From Nostoc punctiforme PCC 73102 (GTDB lineage Bacteria; Cyanobacteriota; Cyanobacteriia; Cyanobacteriales; Nostocaceae), in the NCBI RefSeq assembly GCF_000020025.1, contig NC_010628.1, positions 3,270,001 through 3,302,000 of the forward strand: a stretch of 32,000 bases of DNA, read 5' to 3'. A model generated the notes under the pieces. It searched no databases and was not told the origin of the DNA. It was given only the letters and a program-made list of their open reading frames with translations. The first letter of the stretch is position 1. Each line of letters begins with the position of its first letter. This document shows positions 1-12,458 of this stretch, piece after piece. A program made the translations under genes and the position numbers.

Positions 1-1333
1 TAAAAAGTACCGAACTAACCACTCCGTCTTTAATAATCACTTTTTCTATCAACGCCCGAAATATTACCCGCTTTTCATCATCTGGCAGCGTATGCCAATA
101 CAAAGGATCGGGGAACGATTTGAGCATATCAATTCTAGAATCAGTTTCAACTTGGCGATCGCCCAAGCTATAAACAAATTCATTGATGCGTCGCTGTAAC
201 TTGGTTTTTGCATCCTCAATGTCTGGATCGTACCCTAATTGAGATAAAGCAGTTAGGCGCGATCGCAGTTGCATCAACTCTTGGGGTTCTATGGTGGTGG
301 CGGTAATACCGGCAAAATTAACAATTTCCCTAGATTTTTTGACCAACATTGAAATCACTGCATCTTCCACGATTTCAATACGCGGCGTGCGTCGTTGTGA
401 ACAAGTTTGAGATTGAATGCGCTGTTTGCGGCGGCGACAATAAACATAGATTCTTTCATTAGGGGCAGTTCCCCCGTGTGCCACGGTCATCTTAATTTGG
501 CATTCGCCGCAGAACATCAACCCCCCCAAAGGATACTGTCTAGCGATGCGGTTTTGGCCCCAGTACTGTTTGTTATTTTGGAAAATCTCACAAATGACCC
601 GATATTCAATTTCAGTCATCACCGCTTGATCGGAATGGGTATTGTGAATTATGGTTTCCCATTGTTCGTAGGTGCGATTATAGGGTGTGTGTCCTCGGAG
701 CGTGGGATTAAGCAACCAGCGCCGCAAACCGTTGGCCGTCCACTGCTTACCATATTTCTCATCAATTAATCGGCAAGCGCCTTGGAGCGATCGCACCGCC
801 AAAAATGCCTCAATTTGACCACGGGCGTTGACTTTGGGGTCAAGTTGGTATTTTTCATCTACTCGAATGTAGCCGTAGGGTGGCTTAGGATTAGCTTTTA
901 CCTTTTCACGGAAGTATTCAAACCCCTTTTTAATCCTCATACTCAGCATTCGGCTTTCAAATTCGGCATTTAGCCCAGCTTGACTGCGCTGTAGCCATTG
1001 ATAGGGATTAGCAAGGTCAATCAGTCCGCCAGCATCTAATATCTCTAGCTGCACTTCACACCGAAAAAATGTTTCTAAGATTTGCAAAGTTGTGATTCCC
1101 CGCCTTGTAATGCGATCGTCACGGGTAATGCACACACAACTTACTTGGCGCGATCGCACCAATGCCATCAATTTTTCAAATTCAGGTCGGTCATCATCAC
1201 TCCCTGATTGAATATCAAAAAATATTTCTTGGCAGCCAGCACGCTCTAGTCGGTTAATTTGTTGGGCAGCCGCATGAGTACAATCAGCTTGCTCGTTTGT
1301 CGAAACCCTTCCGTAACCTAGTTTTTGTTTCAT
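1..1333 (-). CDS. Large serine recombinase, XisF-like (partial; C-terminus lies beyond the left window edge)
   Basis: Absent from the supplied ORF track because no stop lies inside the window. My reverse-complement translation from the ATG (1333-1331) is open to position 1 (444 codons, checked row by row). It reads MKQKLGYGRVSTNEQADCTHAAAQQINRLERAGCQEIFFDIQSGSDDDRPEFEKLMALVRSRQVSCVCITRDDRITRR..., which is a resolvase-type catalytic domain (YGRVST nucleophile-Ser motif, SG..RP, DR..R). A recombinase domain (KPPYGY) and a Cys cluster FCGEC...YVYCRRR (zinc-ribbon-like) follow. Track ORFs 407..769 and 782..973 (+) are antisense artefacts of this gene. Confidence 0.85.
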   Translation of the reverse strand, partial: MKQKLGYGRVSTNEQADCTHAAAQQINRLERAGCQEIFFDIQSGSDDDRPEFEKLMALVRSRQVSCVCITRDDRITRRGITTLQILETFFRCEVQLEILDAGGLIDLANPYQWLQRSQAGLNAEFESRMLSMRIKKGFEYFREKVKANPKPPYGYIRVDEKYQLDPKVNARGQIEAFLAVRSLQGACRLIDEKYGKQWTANGLRRWLLNPTLRGHTPYNRTYEQWETIIHNTHSDQAVMTEIEYRVICEIFQNNKQYWGQNRIARQYPLGGLMFCGECQIKMTVAHGGTAPNERIYVYCRRRKQRIQSQTCSQRRTPRIEIVEDAVISMLVKKSREIVNFAGITATTIEPQELMQLRSRLTALSQLGYDPDIEDAKTKLQRRINEFVYSLGDRQVETDSRIDMLKSFPDPLYWHTLPDDEKRVIFRALIEKVIIKDGVVSSVLF

Positions 1334-1370
1334 TTGCCGTTTTAACTCTCACTACAGTGAAGCCTTAGAT

Positions 1371-1931
1371 ATGATGGGAGTTGCTCTCAGTAATAAATGT
1401 AAATATGAAGTTGATAATCATCCTTGGCAAAATCCAATTACTACTGTAGGTATAACTGTGTTACCTAAAGGCGATTTATTGCATCACAAATTTGGTGTAA
1501 TAGATAGCCAAACAGTAATTACAGGTTCTCATAATTGGTCAGACGCTGCCAATAATGGTAACGATGAGACACTTGTAGTAATTGAAAATCCCATAGTTGC
1601 GGCTCACTATGTGCGAGAATTTGCTCGTCTTTATGCCAAAGTTAAACCCGGCTTACCACCAGCAATTCAAGAAAAGGTGAAATTAGAACAAACACGCTGT
1701 CCCCAGATCAAAAGTTCTTCATCAAGTGAACTACAAGCAATTAAACAAATAAATATTAATATTGCAAGTTTGCCAGAATTAGAAACTCTCCCTGGCGTGG
1801 GTAAGAAGTTAGCACAACGGATAATTCTTAGCCGTCAACAGCAAAAGTTTACATCTTTACAAGACTTAGAAAGAGTTCCAGGGGTTAAGGCGAAGACATT
1901 GGAAAAATGGCGCGATCGCGTGGTTTGGTAG
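1371..1931 (+). CDS. PLD-superfamily (single HKD, Nuc-like) nuclease domain fused to a ComEA-type helix-hairpin-helix tail; apparently only the 3' portion of a gene
   Basis: The HKD motif HHKFGVIDSQTVITGSHNWSDAANNGNDE begins only about 38 aa after the called Met. The C-terminal LPELETLPGVGKKLAQRI...LQDLERVPGVKAKTLEKW gives two HhH motifs as in ComEA. There is no signal peptide, and too little sequence precedes the HKD motif for a complete PLD fold. The frame stays open upstream to 1278, across the recombinase start codon. Confidence 0.7.
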   Translation: MMGVALSNKCKYEVDNHPWQNPITTVGITVLPKGDLLHHKFGVIDSQTVITGSHNWSDAANNGNDETLVVIENPIVAAHYVREFARLYAKVKPGLPPAIQEKVKLEQTRCPQIKSSSSSELQAIKQININIASLPELETLPGVGKKLAQRIILSRQQQKFTSLQDLERVPGVKAKTLEKWRDRVVW

Positions 1932-1951
1932 CAGTTTTTGTTTAAAAAATA

Positions 1952-1984
1952 AGATCCCCGACCTCTCAAAGAAGTCGGGGATCT
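1952..1984 (-). terminator. Intrinsic terminator hairpin between convergent genes
   Basis: agatccccgac (1952-1962) pairs with gtcggggatct (1974-1984) in an 11-bp perfect stem with an 11-nt loop. On the minus strand it is followed by TTATTTTTT, which fits termination of the glycosyltransferase gene. It may also stop the + strand gene. Confidence 0.7.
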
Positions 1985-1996
1985 GGGGCACACAAA

Positions 1997-3082
1997 TTAA
2001 ATGCGATCGCTACTTAAAGCAATCAAATTGCGTGAATGCCCATTCCGAGAAAATCGTTCTGCTATTATTTTTTGATAAACCGCTTCATAGCCATCAGTCA
2101 TTTGCTCAACGCTGAAAAGGTCTTCGACATATTGGCGACAAGTATAGCGGTCTAACTCTATTACCCGATCCACAGCACTGATGCACTCTTGAAGATTATT
2201 GCAGAGGAAACCCGTCTTACCGTGGGAAATTACCTCTTCAGTAGACCCCAAGTTCATCGCAATCACTGGCGTACCCGAAGCCATTGACTCAACCATCACT
2301 AATCCAAAGGGTTCCCGCCAAGTAATGGGGAACAGAGTTGCAAATGCGCCTCCCATGAGGGCATTTTTTTGAGCATGATTAGCTTCACCCAAATACTGAA
2401 TTTGCTCTCCGTCGATGTGGGGTTTGATTTCCTTCTCAAAGTATTCCACATCAACGACATCTACCTTGCCTGCCATTTTCAAGCACCAACCGGCTTGTTT
2501 AGCAATTTCTATTGCTAAATGCGCTCCCTTTTCAGGAGACATCCGACCCAAAAACGCTAAGTAAGGCGGATCTTCTGGTTGGGCGTGAAAATTATAACTG
2601 CTGACATCAATTCCGTTGTAGACCGTTGCTATACAGTTCAACCCTAACCTTGGTTCTCGTTGTGCATCAGAAATACTAACGTAGGGTTGTTTTTTACCAA
2701 AACTAAACATCTTTTCGTTGTCAGAGGTAAAAATCCCATGCAACGTGTGAACCGTAGGGGTTGTGACGAGATTTGCGTAAGCCAGTGCCCCATGCCCGAT
2801 ATGGGAGTGAATAATATCAAACTCTTCTGCGCGTTCATACGCCGAAGCGAGATTCAGCGTTTCATAAACGCTGTAATCTTTGATAGTGCGATCGAGTCTG
2901 AGCGCACGGGGATGAACTGACACAAGTTTTGCCAGACTGATAGAATCTCCCGATGCAAATAAAGTTACTTCGTGTCCGCGTCGGACTAATTCATCGGTTA
3001 GTAACCCCACTACTAACTCTATACCTCCATAAGCTGGAGGTGGAACTCTTTCCCATAATGGAGCTACTTGAGCAATTCTCAT
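1997..3082 (-). CDS. Glycosyltransferase, GT-B fold (family 4 / Glycos_transf_1 type)
   Basis: The N-terminus MRIAQVAPLWERVPPPAYGGIELVVGLLTDELVRRGHEVTLFASGDS and the C-terminal EPFGLVMVESMASGTPVIA motif (E-x7-E-type region) are typical of GT4 enzymes. I prefer the ATG at 3082 (SD-like AGGAGG about 7 nt upstream) over the TTG at 3103 used by the track. Confidence 0.85.
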   Translation of the reverse strand: MRIAQVAPLWERVPPPAYGGIELVVGLLTDELVRRGHEVTLFASGDSISLAKLVSVHPRALRLDRTIKDYSVYETLNLASAYERAEEFDIIHSHIGHGALAYANLVTTPTVHTLHGIFTSDNEKMFSFGKKQPYVSISDAQREPRLGLNCIATVYNGIDVSSYNFHAQPEDPPYLAFLGRMSPEKGAHLAIEIAKQAGWCLKMAGKVDVVDVEYFEKEIKPHIDGEQIQYLGEANHAQKNALMGGAFATLFPITWREPFGLVMVESMASGTPVIAMNLGSTEEVISHGKTGFLCNNLQECISAVDRVIELDRYTCRQYVEDLFSVEQMTDGYEAVYQKIIAERFSRNGHSRNLIALSSDRI

Positions 3083-3738
3083 CACAAACCTCCTAAAAAA
3101 CAAAGCTAGAATTAGAAGTTTTTTATTTCTGTTGTCGTAGTGCTTGTAATTAATTAACTTGGCATCAGAAAGTAACTTCGGATACTAAATTTATTAACAA
3201 TTTCCTTCAAATCTTATGCTGCTTCTTCTATATTGTTTGTCTATCTTAGTACGGAAATTACCCACTCCTAAAGAGGTAAATCTATTCCGATATATTAATT
3301 TTTGGTTGTTTGGTGTAATTTTAAATATAGATTTTTTGATGAATAATAATTTTATTAAATTGCCAAAACTCACTTTAAATAGTGATATTAGGCGATAAAT
3401 ATCCAATTTTGCTTATCAAGTATCGTATTTACAAATATTAATTAAATAATAAAATCTGTAGATACTCTTTGGGCGGCTTTCCGTACTCTAAAAGATAAAC
3501 TGTAGCCGTCCAAAAGACATATTTGGGTAAATTAGGTAGTTTGAAATCAAAAACAGCAATTTTATTAGAAGTTCTATCCAAGTTTTTCAAGGTAACAATC
3601 AATTCTGTTCTTGTTGACCTTATTTAAAGGCAATAGGAAGTCACGAGAATTACCTCCATGAGTTGGATTCCCTCGTAGCCAAGAGTGAGAAAACAGAGTT
3701 AAATAATTGACTTATTAGATAAAATATGATATTTTGTA

Positions 3739-4572
3739 TTGCCATCAATAAAAATAATATATATAAACGTGAATATCTCTCCATCTCTCAAAAAACCGCG
3801 TGTCTCATGGCAAGCGGTTTTCTCACTAGTAATATTTGTGTTCATGTACCTGCCTATACTGGTACTTAGCTTTTATAGCTTCAATCAGTCGCCCTATAGC
3901 GCAACTTGGCAAGGATTCACTCTCGATTGGTATCGCAAGTTGTTCAGCGACGATCGCATTTTATCAGCCTTGCAAAACAGTATGATAGTTGCTGGTTGTG
4001 CAGTTGGGGTTTCAGCCGTGCTGGGAACTTTGATGGCAGTTGGGTTAGCGCGTTACGAATTTCCTGGCAAGAAATTGTATCGGGGTATTTCTTACTTACC
4101 ATTGATTATTCCCGACATTGCGATCGCAGTGGCAACCCTAGTTTGTTTAGCCGCCTTTGCCATACCCCTAAGTTTGTGGACGATAGTTGCAGCGCATATC
4201 GTGTTTTGTCTAGCTTATGTCGGACTTGTAGTTGCTTCACGACTTACCAATTTAGATCCCCACCTAGAAGAAGCAGCACTAGATTTAGGCGCTACACCAA
4301 CGCAAGCTTTCATCCAAGTATTATTACCTCAATTGATGCCTGGTATTTTAGCTGGTTGTCTTTTGGCCTTTGTCCTCAGCTTAGATGACTTTCTGATTTC
4401 CAGCTTTACTGCCGGTAGCGGTTCTAACACCCTACCAATGGAAATTTTTAGCCGGATTAGAACAGGAGTCAAGCCTGATATTAACGCGCTGAGTGTCATG
4501 TTGATTTCAGTATCTGCGATCGTTGCATTTATAGCTGAATTAATTCGCGCTTCTGGAGAAAATAAAAGCTAA
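3739..4572 (+). CDS. ABC transporter permease, PotC-like (polyamine-type inner-membrane component)
   Basis: Multi-TM protein with the EAA-loop-like segment LEEAALDLGATPTQAFIQVLLPQLMPGI typical of binding-protein-dependent permeases. The N-terminus resembles PotC (YLPILVLSFYSFN). The start is uncertain (TTG 3739 or GTG 3769). No cognate ATPase, second permease or binding protein is adjacent. Confidence 0.8.
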   Translation: MPSIKIIYINVNISPSLKKPRVSWQAVFSLVIFVFMYLPILVLSFYSFNQSPYSATWQGFTLDWYRKLFSDDRILSALQNSMIVAGCAVGVSAVLGTLMAVGLARYEFPGKKLYRGISYLPLIIPDIAIAVATLVCLAAFAIPLSLWTIVAAHIVFCLAYVGLVVASRLTNLDPHLEEAALDLGATPTQAFIQVLLPQLMPGILAGCLLAFVLSLDDFLISSFTAGSGSNTLPMEIFSRIRTGVKPDINALSVMLISVSAIVAFIAELIRASGENKS

Positions 4573-4892
4573 AAATAAAACTTGCAATTAATAATCAAAA
4601 TTATGGATAACTTGGTTCTCCATGAACTTTTTTAGATGGCAAAAAAAGCTATATTCAAAGAGACGTTGCAATGTAAACACCTCTACATTCTTCATACTTA
4701 TGTATTTGTATTTACCAATAGTTAAAAACGTCCCAACATAGATAAATATATAAAATTTATTCATCTTCTTGTTCTCGTGTTCAAAGAAGTTTAAGCACAT
4801 GAATAAACTTCCGTGTTCGCTTCTGTACATAACTGTTTTCAATTAGATAATATTGGGGCTAACTTTGGAGAAAATGCTATTTCCCCCTCATT

Positions 4893-6731
4893 ATGCAAAT
4901 CTGCCAAAATCCCAATTGCTCAAATCCATTCAACTCTGATAGCAATAGATTTTGCGTGAGTTGCGGACAAAGCAGCTTTGGCAAACTTCTAAGAAGCCGT
5001 TACCGCGTATTAAGACTCTTAGGTGAAGGTGGATTTAGTAGAACCTATGCTACAGAAGATGTAGACAGACTAAACGCGCCTTGCGTCATCAAGCAATTTT
5101 TTCCCCAATTTCAGGGAACCGGACAACGCACCAAAGCAGCAGAATTTTTTAAAGAAGAGGCTTTTCGGTTGTATGAACTGGGAGAAAATCATACTCAAAT
5201 TCCCAGATTACTAGCTTATTTTGAACAAGGTGCTAGTTTGTATCTTGTTCAAGAATTTATTCAAGGAAAAACTCTCTTACAAGAAGTTCAGCAACAAATC
5301 TATGGTGAAAAGCAGGTTTGGGAACTTTTAGCTGATTTATTGCCAGTTCTGGAATTCATTCATACACATAATGTCATTCATCGGGATATCAAACCAGAAA
5401 ATATTATCCGCCGTGCAAGCGATCAAAAACCCGTATTAATTGACTTTGGTGGTGCTAAACAAGTAACACAAACCAGTTTAGGAAGACAGGCTACAGTAAT
5501 TTATACCCTTGGTTATGCCCCAACCGAACAAATGGCTGGATTTGCTTGTCACGGCAGTGATTTGTATGCTTTAGGTGTAACTTGCGTGCGTCTTTTAACT
5601 CGATGTTTGCCTTTGCAGGATGCTTCTGGACAGGTTAATGACCCTATTTATGATGCCATGAATGCTAAATGGTTGTGGCGCGAACGATTACAAGAAAAAA
5701 GTATTACTATCAGCGAAGACTTAGAGAGAATTTTAGAGAAATTACTAAAACATCTACCTAGTGAAAGATATCAAACAGCAGTAGAAGTTATCAATGATTT
5801 GAAATTTGCAACATCGAACATTGAACCGGTTGCCCTGAAAATTGTTTCGATGTCTCAACCCATATTACCGCCGTTACCACAGGAAGTAATAGTACCATTA
5901 CCTCCCTTAGAAACCTTTGAATTTGACGTAGTGACAGTAGACACAGGTGGTAGAGAAGTAAACCGCATGAGTGGTAATGCAAACTTCTTTACCGAAGAAT
6001 TGGGTAAATCTGTCACCTTAGAAATGGTATCGATTCCTGGCGGTACTTACATGATGGGTTCACCGGAATGTGAAGGAGATGCTGATGAACGTCCTCGACA
6101 TAAAGTTACCGTCAAACCGTTTTTTATGGGGAAATTTCCCGTAACTCAAGCACAGTGGAGAGTAGTAGCAGCTTTACCCAAAATCAAACAAGCTTTAAAT
6201 CCCAATCCATCAAAATTTAAAGGTTTAGATAGACCAGTAGAAAATGTATCTTGGTATGAGGCTGTAGAATTCTGTCTCAGAATATCAGAAAAAACTGGAC
6301 GCGACTATCGTTTACCCAGTGAGGCTGAATGGGAATATGCTTGTCGGGCTGGAACTACAACATCCTTCCACTTTGGCGAAACCATTACCTCTGAGTTAGT
6401 CAGTTGCACTATTGAAACAGCAAGCAAATTTCGTAGAGAGACAACCAACGTCGGTAGTTTTGGAGTCGCCAACGCCTTTGGATTATACGATATGCACGGG
6501 CTAGTTTGGGAATGGTGCGCTGACTCGTGGCACAACAATTACAGCGATGCACCTTCAGATGGAACAGCCTGGGAAGTTGGCGGTGATATTAATCGCCGAG
6601 TGCTACGTGGTGGTTCTTGGAGTTTCAATGCCGAACTGTGTCGCAGCGCCAGCCGTAGCTGGAATGAGTCAGACGGTGGACTGAGGGTTTGTGGCTTTAG
6701 AGTAGTATTTTCCGTAGAGGAGATTATTTAG
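4893..6731 (+). CDS. Ser/Thr protein kinase with N-terminal 4-Cys zinc-ribbon and C-terminal FGE-sulfatase (SUMF1/EgtB/PvdO-type) domain
   Basis: N-terminal CQNPNC...CVSC; kinase motifs GEGGFSRTY, VIKQ, HRDIKPENII, DFG and GYAPTEQ. The C-terminal region has RLPSEAEWEYACRAGT, GLVWEWCAD and LRGGSW motifs of the FGE-sulfatase fold. Confidence 0.9.
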   Translation: MQICQNPNCSNPFNSDSNRFCVSCGQSSFGKLLRSRYRVLRLLGEGGFSRTYATEDVDRLNAPCVIKQFFPQFQGTGQRTKAAEFFKEEAFRLYELGENHTQIPRLLAYFEQGASLYLVQEFIQGKTLLQEVQQQIYGEKQVWELLADLLPVLEFIHTHNVIHRDIKPENIIRRASDQKPVLIDFGGAKQVTQTSLGRQATVIYTLGYAPTEQMAGFACHGSDLYALGVTCVRLLTRCLPLQDASGQVNDPIYDAMNAKWLWRERLQEKSITISEDLERILEKLLKHLPSERYQTAVEVINDLKFATSNIEPVALKIVSMSQPILPPLPQEVIVPLPPLETFEFDVVTVDTGGREVNRMSGNANFFTEELGKSVTLEMVSIPGGTYMMGSPECEGDADERPRHKVTVKPFFMGKFPVTQAQWRVVAALPKIKQALNPNPSKFKGLDRPVENVSWYEAVEFCLRISEKTGRDYRLPSEAEWEYACRAGTTTSFHFGETITSELVSCTIETASKFRRETTNVGSFGVANAFGLYDMHGLVWEWCADSWHNNYSDAPSDGTAWEVGGDINRRVLRGGSWSFNAELCRSASRSWNESDGGLRVCGFRVVFSVEEII

Positions 6732-6804
6732 CAATCTAATTCAAAGGCTGTAGAAATTATGAACAACAGATTTTCACCAATGTAAATTCTTTTTTATCTT
6801 ACAT

Positions 6805-7335
6805 TTATACCTCAATCATCTCTGCTGCTATGCTATTGTTTGAATTGCTATTTATTTTGCTATTTTTGAGATATTGCACAACTTCTTGATAGATTTGGCT
6901 ATTAACGCGATCGCCCCGTTGACCATCCTCTAATTTCATATTATCTACAAAAAAATTAAGTTGGAATTTAATATAAGAATTGCCTTCATCGTCATATTCT
7001 ATTGCCTTCACTAAAACTTTAGGCTCTTGCCATTTTTGTCGGGGTTCCTTAAATCGTTCTCGCAACCATTGATTTAACTCCATTACATAATCATCCAAGC
7101 GGGTTTCTTCGCTTTGGGGATTTGAAATTTTCTGATAGAGTCCCTGTGCCCGACGTTTCAGCAGATTAATCTTGCGTTCCCACTCATCAGGAATAACAAA
7201 CGCATCAGTATCGAGTAAATTAGGGTCACGAATACTAGTGCGATACCATAGCCTAATTAGTTCAATTAGGCTATCTTTAGCACGAGTTTCTTCCAATGTA
7301 AAAATAGTACGATTATTTTGAGCTTCTGCGATCAC
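6805..7335 (-). CDS. Hypothetical soluble protein, probably co-transcribed downstream of the bestrophin-like channel gene
   Basis: 176-aa ORF (GTG start) lying 17 nt after the stop of the upstream same-strand gene, with a charged, helical-looking N-terminal half. The C-terminal segment VLVKAIEYDDEGNSYIKFQLNFFVDNMKLEDGQRGDRVNSQIYQEVVQYLK loosely recalls the C-terminal domain of MscS-family channels. That resemblance is an unverified impression. Confidence 0.55.
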   Translation of the reverse strand: MIAEAQNNRTIFTLEETRAKDSLIELIRLWYRTSIRDPNLLDTDAFVIPDEWERKINLLKRRAQGLYQKISNPQSEETRLDDYVMELNQWLRERFKEPRQKWQEPKVLVKAIEYDDEGNSYIKFQLNFFVDNMKLEDGQRGDRVNSQIYQEVVQYLKNSKINSNSNNSIAAEMIEV

Positions 7336-7352
7336 TTATAGTCCAATTAAAC

Positions 7353-8249
7353 TCAAGACATCTCGATATTCTTGCTTGTCCAGTAACATCCAATATCGTA
7401 TTTGATTGTATTGCAAATAGCATCAAGGGGTAAGTCGTTGGTATCGGAACCAAAGGGATTTTCTATTTCAATCCCAATTTCTTCAATGCCAAGTAAGGTA
7501 AAACTAATCAAACTAACAAATGGCCCTGTTCCCCATCCCAAATCTTTAACTAACTGAAAAGGCAATAACAGACAGTAAATTAATAATAGTTGCTTGAGAT
7601 GAATGGAATAAGCTAGGGGGAGGGGCGTTCTTAAAATGCGTTCGCAGTGCCCTAAAGACTCCATCAAACTCTTCACAGTAGTTTGCAAAAAAATTACATG
7701 ACCGTAATGTAATACAGCATTACCACGTTGATACTGCTGTTGTAGATAATCTGCTATCCAAAAAACAATTTGTAATGGCGGCTTTTTGATTTTCTTTAGC
7801 TGTAAATATTGAGATTGAGACACCAATTCTTCTAATTCGCTACTTACAGGCTCTGACCTAAGATGCAATTTACACGCCACAATTAAAGCAGTTACCAGGC
7901 GCATCACGGCAATTCTTTTGGCTTGATCTTCTGGTTCAACTTCGTTCAGTATTGCCCCAATTTGCCAAGCCATGTTACGAGCATCGTTGACTAAGTTTCC
8001 CCATAATCTACGACCTTCCCAAAACCGTTCGTAAGAGGTATTAGTTCGGAAAACCAGTAATAAGCCTAAGACGATGCTGGGAATAATACTTCCCAAAATA
8101 GGTTGGGATACAGGGAGTTTGAAATAGTAGAGTATAGAAATAATAAAACTAAATATACCAAATCCAATAACTCGCTGATAAATGGCTAAAATAACTGACC
8201 CTCTAAGCTGGAAAGCCAGTCTAAACCAGTTTTTTGTTTTTGTTTTCAT
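7353..8249 (-). CDS. Bestrophin-family (UPF0187/YneE-like) ion channel
   Basis: Shows NTSYERFWEGRRLWGNLVNDARN and the RTPLPLAYSIHLKQ motif, with four predicted hydrophobic helices and about 300 aa. These are typical of bacterial bestrophin homologues. Confidence 0.8.
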   Translation of the reverse strand: MKTKTKNWFRLAFQLRGSVILAIYQRVIGFGIFSFIISILYYFKLPVSQPILGSIIPSIVLGLLLVFRTNTSYERFWEGRRLWGNLVNDARNMAWQIGAILNEVEPEDQAKRIAVMRLVTALIVACKLHLRSEPVSSELEELVSQSQYLQLKKIKKPPLQIVFWIADYLQQQYQRGNAVLHYGHVIFLQTTVKSLMESLGHCERILRTPLPLAYSIHLKQLLLIYCLLLPFQLVKDLGWGTGPFVSLISFTLLGIEEIGIEIENPFGSDTNDLPLDAICNTIKYDIGCYWTSKNIEMS

Positions 8250-8545
8250 CCTAACTTCAATGATTGAGCCTGATAAAAATCCATTTAGATTAAATTTATT
8301 TTATTAATCAAATAGATCAGTAGTTGTGTTAAAAAGCTAAAAAGTCAATAGTTATCTTCATTCTTAAAAGTAGTACCTGCGCTATAAGTAAGTCGGTGCA
8401 ATAAAAGCAAACTGCGTGAAGAAAGTAAACAAGGTTAAAACCTTCTTTCCCCCTGCTCCCTGCCTTCAGCAAAAACTGCCTTATCCCAACGATAATTATT
8501 TACGCTGACCTACTTGCTTTGTGTGGCGCAAGCTAAATAATAGAC

Positions 8546-9751
8546 TTATTCTTGCATTCCGGCATAGAGAAGCCGTGTAAACAATCTCGCTCCATCATCC
8601 CGTTTGAGTTGGGCGTAGGAAGGAGGTTCACGCCGACCCACCACCCGCAAATCTGTGAGTAATTCGGGATGGAATTGACAGGTAAAGGAGCGACGAATCA
8701 CCTTACTCTCAAAATCTTTGTAGTTAATGCAGGTGGCAGAACATTCTGTGAGTACTTCGCCCTCATGGGTTGTTGAACATAAAATTTCTACTGCAAAGGG
8801 AAGTTGCATTAGCCAAGATAAGGAACTTCCCGCCAAAATATAACGGTAAGGAATGATTGTGTTATGCAGTAGACGATATGCCCAATTAGCAAATAGCATA
8901 GCTTCTTCGTTGACTTCATCAGAGTGGAACATCGCAATATTCAGTTCATGTTCATACTCGATTGAGGTATCAATCACCCCTTCAAATTCATCGGCGGTGA
9001 CTTCATGTGCTGTGATTAACTGTTGTGGAATTCCAGAGGTTTCACTATCCGGTGATTGATAGTGAAGCAACTGGCGATCGCCTACTTCTTTAAATTCGTT
9101 TGGCCCAACTGTAAATTCCGAATCGTTCCAGTTTGAAGCAACTAGTTGGCCGTTCTTTTTCTTAACTTGGAGTGTCTCGCCAACACTCTGAATCTGCTGA
9201 CAAACATTCTGCAACGCGTGGAGTGCTTTGTTACCTCGATCGCGCTGTAACATTTTCATATCAAGCACTTGCCGTACTGCTCTTTGAATCAAGCTGATGT
9301 GCGCTTGTGCAGCGAGCTGATGCCCTAAACAAATAAAAATAGCTGGCGCACTAGTGGGCGATCGCGACAGTAACAACTTCTCTATAAACAAATGTAGGTC
9401 TTTTAAAGAAGCTTTACTGCCTGCAAATGTAGAAGCATCGCGTACAGAAGGATCGCCTCCTTCAACCACAACCGCTAACCCGGAGGAAATAATAGGAATA
9501 ACTAACTCTGGATCGAGGAGTCCAGACAGACGACCACAAAGGGAAACACAATTGAATCACAATCTGCAATTTTTTGAGCAATATAGGCAACATTAATGGA
9601 GGCACGGACGTGTTCGCCTAATAGGTTATAGCCGACGTGTTTCCAAGGTTCAATAATGGCGATCAGCCAAGAAGCATCCTAATAAAATATGGACTGATTC
9701 AAAATCAGAGTGGCTTTCGCTGAGATAACCGGATTGTGAGCGCCAGTTCAT
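8546..9751 (-). pseudogene. Class I glutamine amidotransferase-like gene disrupted by two frameshifts
   Basis: Track ORF 8546..9469 carries the nucleophile elbow ICLGHQ and the QFHPE His/Glu motif. The rest of the GATase fold continues upstream in other frames. An ATG at 9751 gives MNWRSQSGYLSESHSDFESVHILL... and stops at 9650. A second frame (open 9678 to 9502) reads DASWLIAIIEPWKHVGYNLLGEHVRASINVAYIAQKIADCDS. A third frame (open from 9556) reads FNCVSLCGRLSGLLDPELVIPIISSGLAVVVEGGDPS. The shifts therefore lie within 9650-9680 and 9502-9556. Confidence 0.7.
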
Positions 9752-10255
9752 AGTTTAATTGTGCAACCTGCTTAATTTAGCAAAATTTAATTAACATATC
9801 ATAATTTTTTATACCAGGAATTTATCATACGCCACAAGTAAGTAATAATGACAGAAATAGAGCCTAGAATTCAAGCTAAGTAAATCAACCGTCAGGAGAA
9901 AGGAAACTTTTGGATCGCTATGAATCGAATTTGAATGTGTTTAAGGTGAAATAATTTGCAGTGGGCATAATTAAACCTAACTATATTTTTCTCGTGTTTT
10001 ATGTTTAATAGCTTATGCCTCATACTTTCTGACATATCATGAGCAGTGATATTTATTTTTAACCATCTAATTAAATTTGTATTTTTAACTATAAAACTTA
10101 AATATCCATATTAACTTGATCGTGACTTGATATAAACTTTCAAAAACTATGTTTTTATATTTTGAGTGTAGTTTCTTAACAGTAATGCTTAATTTTTTAG
10201 ATTAAATAAGAGAACTTTCCGATAAAATAAACTACAAAGATCATCAGGGATATAT

Positions 10256-10930
10256 ATGCGTTTTTCTCAGTTTGCAGGGATTGTTGGTTGTACTACCGCA
10301 GCTTTTATGTCAATTGCACCCATGCAGGTAGATGCTGCAACTTTTAAAGTGATATCAGGAGTTACCAGCATCGATCGCGATCACGAAGATATTCTTAAAA
10401 GTATCGGGCTAACCTTGACAGGCAGCAATAATATAGTTGCACCAATTCCCAGCAATTATTTAGTTGGCTTTGACATTGATTCAGCTACTAACTTTACGTT
10501 TAGCGACGAGGGCGGCTTTACTCCGCTATCAGGGACAATCGAACATACTGGTACTGTTATCTTTAATAATCAAATTACTGTTGGTGACTTTTCAATTGGT
10601 TTTGCTCCAGGACGTACCGTTCAAGATGCTAGCGGAGTTGTTTTAAGAGACACATTTTCTTTAAATACAATTTTGTTTGATTTGAGTATTACAGAACCTG
10701 CGGCATTTGATGGTCAAAATTTAACCATCCCTGATGTTAAATTGCTGGTTTCTCCAGAGTTTGCAAAAATACTAGGGAACCCTGACTTGACAGGTTTATT
10801 TGCTGGAACTGCACGAATTGATGCTCAAGTTGCTGCCGTACCCGAACCTGATAGTGTGCTAGCAGTTTTGGCAGCAGGTGCGGCTCTCTTGGCAACTAAA
10901 TTTTATACTCGAAAAATTAAATACAGTTGA
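10256..10930 (+). CDS. PEP-CTERM sorting-domain secreted protein
   Basis: N-terminal signal peptide (AAFMSIAPMQVDAAT). The C-terminus [29 protein letters not shown] shows the VPEP motif, a hydrophobic helix and a basic tail. Confidence 0.8.
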   Translation: MRFSQFAGIVGCTTAAFMSIAPMQVDAATFKVISGVTSIDRDHEDILKSIGLTLTGSNNIVAPIPSNYLVGFDIDSATNFTFSDEGGFTPLSGTIEHTGTVIFNNQITVGDFSIGFAPGRTVQDASGVVLRDTFSLNTILFDLSITEPAAFDGQNLTIPDVKLLVSPEFAKILGNPDLTGLFAGTARIDAQVAAVPEPDSVLAVLAAGAALLATKFYTRKIKYS

Positions 10931-12458
10931 TATCTTGAAGCATTGCTAAATGCTTATTAACTGGTGCAAGGGTATTGGCAGCAATCAGCCCACTAGCGGC
11001 GACTGCTGGTAAACCAATACCGGGAAATGTTGAGTCGCCACAGCACATCAATCCTGGTAGGGGTGTGCTGGGGCTAGGAAACATACCACTTCCTGCCTGA
11101 ATTGCCGGGCCATAAGAACCTTGGTGACGACGGAGATAACGCTCGTGGGTTAACGGTGTACCAACAAGTGTGACTTCGCAACGAGAGCGAATATCTGGAA
11201 TTATCCGCTCTAAAGCTTGCCACATTACTTCTGCACGCGATCGCTTTTGTTCAGCGTATTCTTGACTCCTTCTATCCATTCCCTGCCAGAAAGAGTATGG
11301 CTCATTACCAGGTGTATACACATGAATCACGTGTTTACCTGCTGGCGCTAAAGATGGATCGAGAACTGAAGGGATAGAGATCACCACCACATTTTGAGGT
11401 GCTGTTACGCCCAATTCCCAGTTATTAACTACGATGTAATGACACCGCAAATTTGACTGTAATCCTTGAGCATCGATGCCTAAATGCAGGTGCATAAAGC
11501 TATCACACTCAGGTGTAGCTTGTCTTTTGCTGCGGTACTGTTTGGGTATTGCCTTTTCTGGTAATAATTTCAATGTGTCCCAAACTGAGGCATTAGAAAT
11601 TACTGCTAGTTTGGCGCGAATTTCGGAGCGATCGCGCAGACGCACACCCACCGCACGATTACCTTCTACAAGCACTTCTTCTACATGAGCGCCTAGCATC
11701 AGCTTCCCACCGTGACGCTCTAATCCTTGTACAAGGCTGTCAACTAAAGCACTACTACCACCAATGGGATATTCCAGGATTGCATCTGGGCGATACCAGT
11801 CAGCAAACATAAATGCTACTTCTGCGGCGCTAGTACCATCTGCGGGCAATCCAGAAAGGAGAAAACACAGCAAATTTAGCCAGTTTCGGGTAAAAGAGTC
11901 TTTAACAACCCCATCCATAATCCGGCTGAAGGGACCCGTCAGCTTAATTATATTCGCCACATTTTTTGTCAGAGATGGGACAAACGGGCCCACAGTTCTC
12001 GCTGCACCGAAATCAAAGCGTAATGCGGCTGGTGGTATGGAAGTTGCAGCCCTAGCAAATGGTTCCATAACGCGCTGGAGTTCTTGCCATTCAGCAACAG
12101 CATCATCACCACAGAATTTCATTAGCACTTCACAAAATTGCTCTGCACCAACCGCCGTGTCAAAATCACCTTCTGGTAGACAACAACCCCAAGTATCGTA
12201 GGTGACGCATGGCAATTCAGAACCAATTGCATCTAACACTTGTCGCAAAGGGTTAGCAGAGGGGCTGTAAGATAGTCCAGAATAGAGAGACGGGCCAGAG
12301 TCGAACTTGAAACCATTGCGCTCAAAACCATGAGCAGCGCCTCCAGCAATAGAGTGGCTTTCGCAGACTATCACATCAAAGCCATACCGTGCCAAAAGAG
12401 CAGCACAACTCAAACCGCCAATACCGCTACCAATAACAACTATATCTGTGTTTTGCAT
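10917..12458 (-). CDS. FAD-dependent oxidoreductase of the phytoene desaturase/carotenoid isomerase family (CrtD/CrtH-like)
   Basis: N-terminal dinucleotide fold [38 protein letters not shown], followed by [11 protein letters not shown]. The C-terminal [22 protein letters not shown] is typical of the CrtI superfamily. The 3' end overlaps the convergent PEP-CTERM gene by 14 nt. Confidence 0.85.

Follow-up and report, generated by a model that had tools for sequence, protein, structure and literature searches.

Large serine recombinases can place a mobile element inside a host gene and restore that gene when the element leaves precisely. In Listeria, the A118/phi10403S prophage in comK follows a lifestyle known as active lysogeny, in which the competence gene is rebuilt on precise excision, and in Bacillus subtilis the skin element in sigK, with its recombinase SpoIVCA, is a large-serine-recombinase element whose excision rebuilds the gene. 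SPbeta, with the recombinase SprA, is described as reconstituting the B. subtilis host gene spsM when it excises (PMC4191935). Among cyanobacteria a comparable described system is the fdxN element, with the recombinase XisF, of Anabaena (Nostoc) sp. PCC 7120; the supplementary table of Hilton, Meeks and Zehr (2016) gives TATTC as the core of the corresponding element in Nostoc sp. PCC 7107 (PMC4874684). In this paper we describe the right end of an element that splits a gene for a phospholipase D (PLD)-ComEA protein in Nostoc punctiforme PCC 73102, as found in 32,000 nucleotides of contig NC_010628.1 (positions 3,270,001 to 3,302,000 of the forward strand, hereafter the window), and we compare the element with its relatives and with these known systems.

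The interruption of this gene is already published. It is element '#1' of N. punctiforme PCC 73102 in the catalogue of Hilton, Meeks and Zehr (2016; PMC4874684, PLoS One 11:e0156034; its Table 1 and S1 Table B). According to these tables the interrupted gene is a "phospholipase D/transphosphatidylase", the direct repeat is CTACA at nt 1053 of the orthologue, the element measures 72.656 kb (NC_010628 3198696-3271351), and its xis gene is Npun_R2637, of the serine type, in opposite orientation and 18 bp from the element end. The entry is catalogued with one occurrence and one variant; the paper offers neither excision evidence nor attachment site (att) anatomy for it, and neither a domain description of the intact gene nor a link to ComEA. 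What is new beyond the 2016 catalogue is the precise rejoined gene, the att anatomy, a relative at the same site, and other elements that break the same gene. A preliminary description, made from the letters of the window and a list of its open reading frames (ORFs), had proposed that the window begins inside a gene-interrupting element. This is borne out by both gene fragments, their common core and the rejoined product, so that the observation is confirmed and its first interpretation supported; the target does lie outside nif, as that description said, but as an unusual one it has been in print since 2016 (PMC4874684, S1 Table B).

The split gene and its rejoined form

Positions 1-1351 of the window are the right end of a 72.7-kb element integrated within a 543-aa gene. 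The intact gene encodes a lipoprotein signal (LAGC at residues 20-23, with Cys23), two PLD domains and HHH_3; in the rejoined protein Pfam places PLDc_2 at residues 72-250 (HKD motif at 190-210) and again at 304-444, and HHH_3 at 480-541, and in the PDB its parts are related to Zucchini/MitoPLD, the Nuc endonuclease 1byr and ComEA. The gene is interrupted after codon 352, in the second PLD domain and upstream of the second HKD; it is left in two fragments between direct repeats, and the recombinase lies within the element, close to one of its ends. The catalogued nt 1053 is the third base of codon 351, consistent with the alignment to the intact gene, and in the window CTACA occupies 1352-1356; its distance of exactly 18 bp from the start codon of the recombinase (ATG at 1333) agrees with the catalogue. 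Every catalogued feature that is visible in the window agrees with entry '#1'.

The 3' fragment holds the rest of PLD domain 2, including its HKD, followed by the helix-hairpin-helix (HhH) domain. The annotated 186-aa ORF within it starts 37 bp from the recombinase ATG, carries its HKD at H38/K40/D45 and a ComEA-type HhH domain, and has no signal peptide. Its match to PLDc_2 covers profile positions 66-131 of 132 only, and so the PLD fold is truncated at the N-terminus. The preliminary description had called the ORF 5'-truncated on the grounds that the HKD lies about 38 aa from its Met and that a signal peptide is absent, and H38 and the partial PLDc_2 match agree with it. Where it had reckoned with roughly 80-100 aa before the HKD, the missing part is 352 codons, about two thirds of the 543 aa, and of the two HKD motifs the window holds the second. 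The frame, which it had read as open upstream to 1278, does run through the recombinase start, but it is closed by a TAA at 1314-1316 and is open only from 1317.

Homology to the intact 543-aa orthologues runs upstream of the ORF Met through YSEALD and ends at about 1352; where longer homologues read ...FAYR(P/S)YSEALDMMGVALSN, the window reads ...FNSHYSEALDMMGVALSN. The missing 5' part had been predicted to lie elsewhere in the genome, and it was found there as P0109, a 355-aa ORF that ends ...FAYRPY and then takes KDG and a stop from element DNA. The two halves, when joined, give an ORF nearly identical to the gene of N. punctiforme UO1.

One might argue that nothing is interrupted: the 186-aa ORF would be a short PLD-HhH gene in its own right, next to a recombinase by coincidence, since several database proteins of about 186 aa begin at the same Met. 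Such proteins, which the preliminary description had named as evidence against an interruption, do exist, but those inspected in their DNA context are frameshifted or broken at the same site: P0001 and P0013 come from frameshifted low-quality assemblies, and P0003, P0049 and P0033 lose homology to the intact gene where the window does. Further proteins of this length, outside that inspection, are P0005, P0009, P0012 and P0020 (contigs <1.4 kb) and P0032. Against a complete short gene stand also the homology to the 543-aa proteins, which continues through YSEALD and halts at the core, the PLDc_2 match without the first half of the fold, and the matching 5' fragment in the same genome, and we give this explanation next to no credence. 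Truncated ORF calls alone are no evidence of interruption. P0001, 97% identical and 186 aa long, was considered as a second interrupted case and rejected because its contig holds the whole gene in three frameshifted pieces; both it (L009 4930-6561) and P0013 (296 aa; L013 7253-8891) come from low-coverage assemblies that contain the gene in full, though frameshifted. Homologues of about 295 aa that start from MWGDG were likewise rejected as full length once the 543-aa form was known; of two shorter homologues that were checked, P0006 is preceded by another element and P0013 by a frameshift.

The predicted rejoined protein was built from P0109 minus KDG, then SEALD, then the 186-aa ORF, and was looked up by exact sequence. 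The exact 543-aa protein (P0092) is present in 5 contigs of independent Logan read-set assemblies as a scar-free ORF; the rejoined product, for which the preliminary description had proposed a test, exists. Three of these contigs were retrieved (SRR6394276, SRR12750589 and SRR14512088), and in them the gene lies between the same neighbours as the split fragments. One rejoined contig, L005, matches 11,057 nt of the left flank at 100% identity and positions 1349-11931 of the window with a single mismatch, which lies in the 8-bp overlap (TCcCTACA/TCaCTACA); the reconstructed 85-nt attB occurs in it exactly. N. punctiforme UO1 already has several residue differences within the gene itself, and with flanks this identical the rejoined runs must therefore be of the same strain. 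These assemblies indicate that the element excises precisely and restores the intact reading frame. Because the rejoined contigs run straight through the junction, the element would be absent or rare in those cultures, and the existence of cultures with a rejoined gene argues for excision in reproducing cells and not only in heterocysts, which are terminal cells. No literature was found on Npun_R2637 or on the read sets, searched by their SRA run numbers, that carry the rejoined gene, and no report of a deletion or excision was found in a resequencing paper (PMC5313495) or a diel-expression preprint.

The split form is the commoner one in public assemblies, with the 5' fragment in 51 indexed blocks and the 3' fragment in 105, compared with 5 contigs for the rejoined gene. 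This predominance, and the lack of a recombinase promoter above chance, are what one would see if the element were a dead remnant, fixed and immobile, with the nuclease gene permanently inactive. The recombinase ORF, however, is intact with all of its domains present, both gene halves are intact and join into the UO1-like ORF, and the scar-free gene in flanks identical to those of the split strain contradicts such a remnant, which we regard as highly improbable. In our judgment this is very probably a reversible integrative element that uses a large serine recombinase, excises precisely at the AC of CTACA and is not strictly heterocyst-programmed.

Attachment sites and the recombinase

The left junction reads ...cgtccCTACAaggacggttaaggcggcaaat... 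and the right junction ...catttgccgttttaactctcaCTACAgtgaagcc..., which locates the latter at 1351/1352, inside the interval of about 1334-1420 that had been predicted for it. The reconstructed attP has arms of the form ATTTGCCGyyTTAAC and 17 symmetric complementary positions out of 25, a level of symmetry reached in 3 of 5000 shuffles. Its symmetry centre lies between A1354 and C1355, and the best symmetry centre of attB and attP is at +2.5 in both. A quasi-palindromic attP centred on AC is the anatomy expected of a large serine recombinase with an AC crossover, and we infer that the AC of the core is the crossover dinucleotide. Coordinates of the features in this part of the window are collected in Table 1.

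Table 1. Features at the right end of the element and in the adjoining host DNA (window coordinates)
Feature	Position	Strand	Basis or remark
Large serine recombinase gene Npun_R2637 (ACC81191.1/WP_012409185.1)	2..1333	-	Translation, Pfam, NCBIfam, PHROG, exact identity
Element-derived arm of attR, ATTTGCCGTTTTAACTCTCA	1332..1351		Mirrors the left-end arm AGGACGGTTAAGGCGGCAAAT; overlaps the recombinase start codon
Core CTACA, common to both junctions and the rejoined gene	1352..1356		Window; left junction (L001 11053-11057); PMC4874684, S1 Table B entry
3' fragment of the PLD-PLD-ComEA gene, codons 352-543 and stop	1352..1931	+	Alignment to intact 543-aa orthologues
Annotated 186-aa ORF ACC81192.1 (exact sequence match), internal Met start	1371..1931	+	ORF list, sequence look-up
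Candidate recombinase promoter, integrated state (TTGCCA, 17 nt spacer, CATATT)	1402..1430	-	Promoter scan, weak consensus match
G+C-rich hairpin, 15 pairs, terminator-like	1952..1984		Terminator scan

Read on the minus strand from 1333 to 2, the recombinase gene has 444 sense codons without a stop, starting MKQKLGYGRVSTNEQ; the complete protein is 446 aa, with 2 codons and the stop beyond the window, and is identical to ACC81191.1. An in-frame TGA at 1349-1351 makes the ATG at 1333 the only possible start. The catalytic Ser is S11 in YGRVST, and the protein matches Resolvase (PF00239, 7e-24, residues 5-142), Recombinase (PF07508, 21.7 bits with a cut-off of 21.1) and Zn_ribbon_recom (PF13408, 45 bits), as well as the PHROG integrase family phrog_95 (1.7e-50). 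The NCBIfam model NF041201 recomb_XisF gives 470.1 bits against an equivalog cut-off of 375, whereas the IS607 transposase model gives 38 bits against 110 and the small resolvase YneB also stays far under its cut-off. By this set of domains and scores Npun_R2637 is a large serine recombinase of the XisF model family, neither a small resolvase nor an IS607 transposase, and the XisF-like recombinase that the preliminary description had placed on the minus strand from 1333 is upheld; a placement with small resolvases or IS607-type enzymes, which it had raised as the contrary outcome, was checked and not found. The RefSeq name 'fdxN element excision recombinase XisF' reaches the protein via the equivalog model, and the gene actually lies in the PLD-ComEA element; the PCC 73102 entries consulted in the supplementary table of PMC4874684 are the PLD and nifD elements, with no fdxN element among them. 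The name is an over-specific transfer: the protein is a member of the sequence family, not the fdxN enzyme.

The recombinase ATG is 18 bp from the junction, and the element-side arm overlaps the start codon; with so little room, any promoter of the recombinase would have to lie across the junction. The promoter scan gave 6 sites with 5.1 expected, and no recombinase promoter above chance. The sole candidate for the integrated state (Table 1) is on the host side of the junction and runs antisense to the 3' gene fragment.

N. punctiforme forms differentiated cells of several types, and the element could be developmentally programmed, that is, excised in a differentiating heterocyst, hormogonium or akinete with the gene restored only there, the element-free cultures being rare escapes. 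The recombinase passes the XisF equivalog model, and the anatomy is that of the heterocyst elements catalogued in the tables of PMC4874684 (end-located xis, opposite orientation, short repeat, intact halves). On the other hand, there is no NtcA-type site GTAN8TAC within 1.8 kb upstream of the recombinase, the precomputed Pfam matches give no XisH/XisI next to it, no heterocyst role is known for the split gene, and cultures in which the rejoined gene is fixed call for excision in cells that reproduce. Developmental programming is on balance unlikely, and heterocyst-programmed excision is possible but unsupported.

Relatives at the same site and other breaks in the gene

Species-representative genomes were scanned with the PLD-ComEA alignment, and the 80 best-scoring copies were compared. 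At this site none of the 80 shows an interruption; 71 are one continuous full-length match and the remaining 9 differ only near residue 480. None of these 80 genomes has a relative of the recombinase within 10 kb of the gene. The recombinase alone found no relative in the species-representative collection, which evidently lacks the element-bearing form of the strain's own genome, and a metagenome scan with the recombinase alignment gave only 4 loci, none of them beside a PLD fragment.

The same site is affected in other sequences too. The Nostoc assembly GCA_006365015.1 breaks at the same FAYRPY|KDG and carries the conserved element arm AGGACGGTTAtAGGgGCAAAT. In KERN20-1 scaffold_16 (ERZ28597905; L097 9047-11308, L094 7941-8684), from a distant cyanobacterium whose PLD protein is 42% identical, an 18.5-kb element sits at the same codon site and the 3' fragment resumes at PY|SEGLD, with the core TACAG. 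Its recombinase is 50% identical to Npun_R2637 and follows the core at a distance of 31 nt, at the start of the element; it shares the strand of the split gene. The element arm resembles that of N. punctiforme, and HTH_3 and PNK3P genes are again found in the cargo. Relative to the core, the recombinase gene of KERN20-1 has the opposite polarity to that of N. punctiforme. By what is known of serine integrases, a flipped central dinucleotide would be expected to give such an opposite polarity. In Aetokthonos a recombinase that is 49% identical is not adjacent to the PLD-ComEA gene, so that this recombinase clade is not restricted to one target. Since a related recombinase uses the same codon site and other elements lie elsewhere in the gene, the gene looks like a recurrent target of mobile DNA, and this has a bearing on how mobile elements and DNA uptake come into conflict.

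Breaks at other positions were seen in several sequences. In SRR31831159 (L011 217-5249, similar to Calothrix membranacea FACHB-236) the break is at about residue 205-212, immediately past the first HKD; beside it are two tyrosine recombinases (360 and 623 aa) and a DUF6262 protein, a combination that resembles the gene set of Tn554. In Anabaena lutea GCA_014698305.1 (L012 1-8483), and also in P0027/P0208 of Anabaena sphaerica, the break lies in the second HKD, where HHKFAVID becomes IDKNFAVVD. Upstream of the A. lutea break are unknown ORFs and, at about 6-8 kb, DUF6262 and an HTH_3/Peptidase_M78 gene; the position is a third insertion site in the same gene. A JGI contig (3300049486; L008 325-2536) holds an orthologue of 68% identity in which homology begins from SEALD, at the site used in N. 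punctiforme, with the junction ...CTATCTAA|AGTGAAGCC. The adjacent gene there is a 471-aa ORF on the same strand with a weak match to an IS110-type DEDD transposase, and there is no serine recombinase in the 1.9 kb before the contig end.

The nine of the 80 copies set apart above (L076 11458-11643, L077 11446-11584, L078, L079, L082, L083 and L085 among them) differ near residue 478-488, an AT-rich boundary before the HhH domain, some by insertions of 130-185 nt and others by loss of the match. This variation near residue 480 fits the 474-501-aa database proteins that have no HhH domain, and may mark either one more hotspot of insertion or a short form that occurs naturally.

On the host side of the window, the hairpin at 1952-1984 lies between the PLD-ComEA gene and a convergent gene on the minus strand (1997-3103) for a glycosyltransferase. 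From 1997 to 32000 the genes are ordinary chromosomal ones, for this glycosyltransferase, an ABC permease, a Ser/Thr kinase that has an FGE-sulfatase domain, a bestrophin-like protein and an amine oxidase, and nothing there is related to the element; Rfam gave no match on the whole window.

Cargo, gene function and comparison with known systems

About 11.8 of the 72.7 kb of element DNA was examined, namely the right 10 kb and the left 1.9 kb. Cargo genes at these ends encode DUF5131/phrog_2045, an HD phosphohydrolase, a protein with an endolysin-like domain, Rep_1, a PNK3P phosphatase, an HTH_3 regulator and many small ORFs. Their PHROG matches are to non-structural families, and the visible cargo looks phage- or plasmid-derived. 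In the excised circle the HTH_3 (Cro/CI-type) gene lies upstream of the recombinase gene and shares its direction, with a hairpin between them (L001 ~11082-11152; -37 kcal/mol, z = -3.0). The hairpin is long and imperfect; it adjoins the left attP arm and extends into the 3' end of the HTH_3 gene, and it could act as a terminator that separates this gene from the recombinase in the circle.

On our reading, a phage- or plasmid-derived integrative element uses a conserved segment of the gene as its attachment site and knocks the gene out reversibly. Recombinase dimers would bind attL and attR, probably with a directionality factor; cutting at the central AC, rotation and religation would restore the gene and release a circle that carries attP, in which the Cro/CI-type regulator gene would come to lie upstream of the recombinase gene and point in the same direction.

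Several points weigh against the reversible integrative element as described, or against parts of it. The five rejoined runs could stem from one cured laboratory lineage, that is, from one excision event, or could come from a sample enriched for a particular cell type, and excision linked to heterocysts, hormogonia or akinetes is possible. In the 11.8 kb examined there is no capsid, terminase or tail gene, the recombinase query and the exact attP found no match in IMG/VR, and 7.9 kb of element cargo gave no blastn match among the deposited phage genomes of INPHARED. With about 11.8 of 72.7 kb seen, no structural genes and no match in phage databases, a 'prophage-like' label is weakly based. 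XisH (PF08814) and XisI (PF08869) are absent from the precomputed Pfam matches of called genes in the 10-kb and 1.9-kb ends, where small ORFs were not scanned directly, and no directionality factor was identified in these ends. Finally, the identity of the split gene as ComA/ComEA is a probable one, suggested by its domains and a ComEA score.

ComA/ComEA of Synechocystis (Slr0197) is described with DNA-binding and endonuclease domains and is required for transformation. The rejoined protein combines a ComEA-type HhH, two nuclease domains and a lipobox signal for export or anchoring, as for a protein of the Slr0197 type. In the survey of Nies et al. (2020; PMC7292380, Table 4) the ComEA BLAST quotient of N. 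punctiforme PCC 73102 is 0.9, compared with 1.3-1.4 in other Nostocales, and the strain was not flagged as potentially naturally competent solely for this low ComEA score. The ratio of these quotients, about 0.65, equals 355/543, as expected if the best ComEA match were the 5' fragment. The split gene is probably the ComA/ComEA competence gene of the strain, to judge from its domains and this ratio, and its interruption could explain why predicted natural competence falls below threshold.

A more far-reaching proposal is that the element acts as a reversible switch of DNA uptake. While integrated it would deprive N. punctiforme of its ComA/ComEA-type DNA receptor-nuclease and prevent natural transformation; when excised, in some cell type or condition (hormogonia, symbiosis or stress) or in cured lineages, it would allow competence, and the conserved codon site would be a dedicated landing pad, used in distant cyanobacteria by one family of serine-recombinase elements. 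We put this forward tentatively and think it improbable as a whole, but if true it would be the cyanobacterial analogue of the comK prophage switch in Listeria. Public data already contain this model strain both with and without the element, and laboratory stocks of N. punctiforme may accordingly differ by 72.7 kb and one functional gene.

The fdxN element of Anabaena/Nostoc sp. PCC 7120 is alike in the family of its recombinase by hidden Markov model, in its size of tens of kb, in its position inside a gene with the recombinase at one end, and in a 5-bp core. It differs in its target, fdxN, whereas the PLD-ComEA gene has no known role in N2 fixation, and in its accessory genes XisH/XisI, none of which lies beside Npun_R2637 in the visible part; excision of the PLD-ComEA element is, moreover, evidently possible in reproducing cells. 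The rejoined protein resembles Slr0197, Nuc (1byr), NucT and Zucchini/MitoPLD, as far as its lipoprotein signal, two HKD domains and ComEA HhH indicate. The comK prophage, SPbeta in spsM and skin in sigK share with the N. punctiforme element a large serine recombinase, a position inside a host gene and a precise excision that restores it. Those three are proven prophages or remnants with a demonstrated condition for excision, whereas in the N. punctiforme element no phage structural gene was seen in the 11.8 kb examined.

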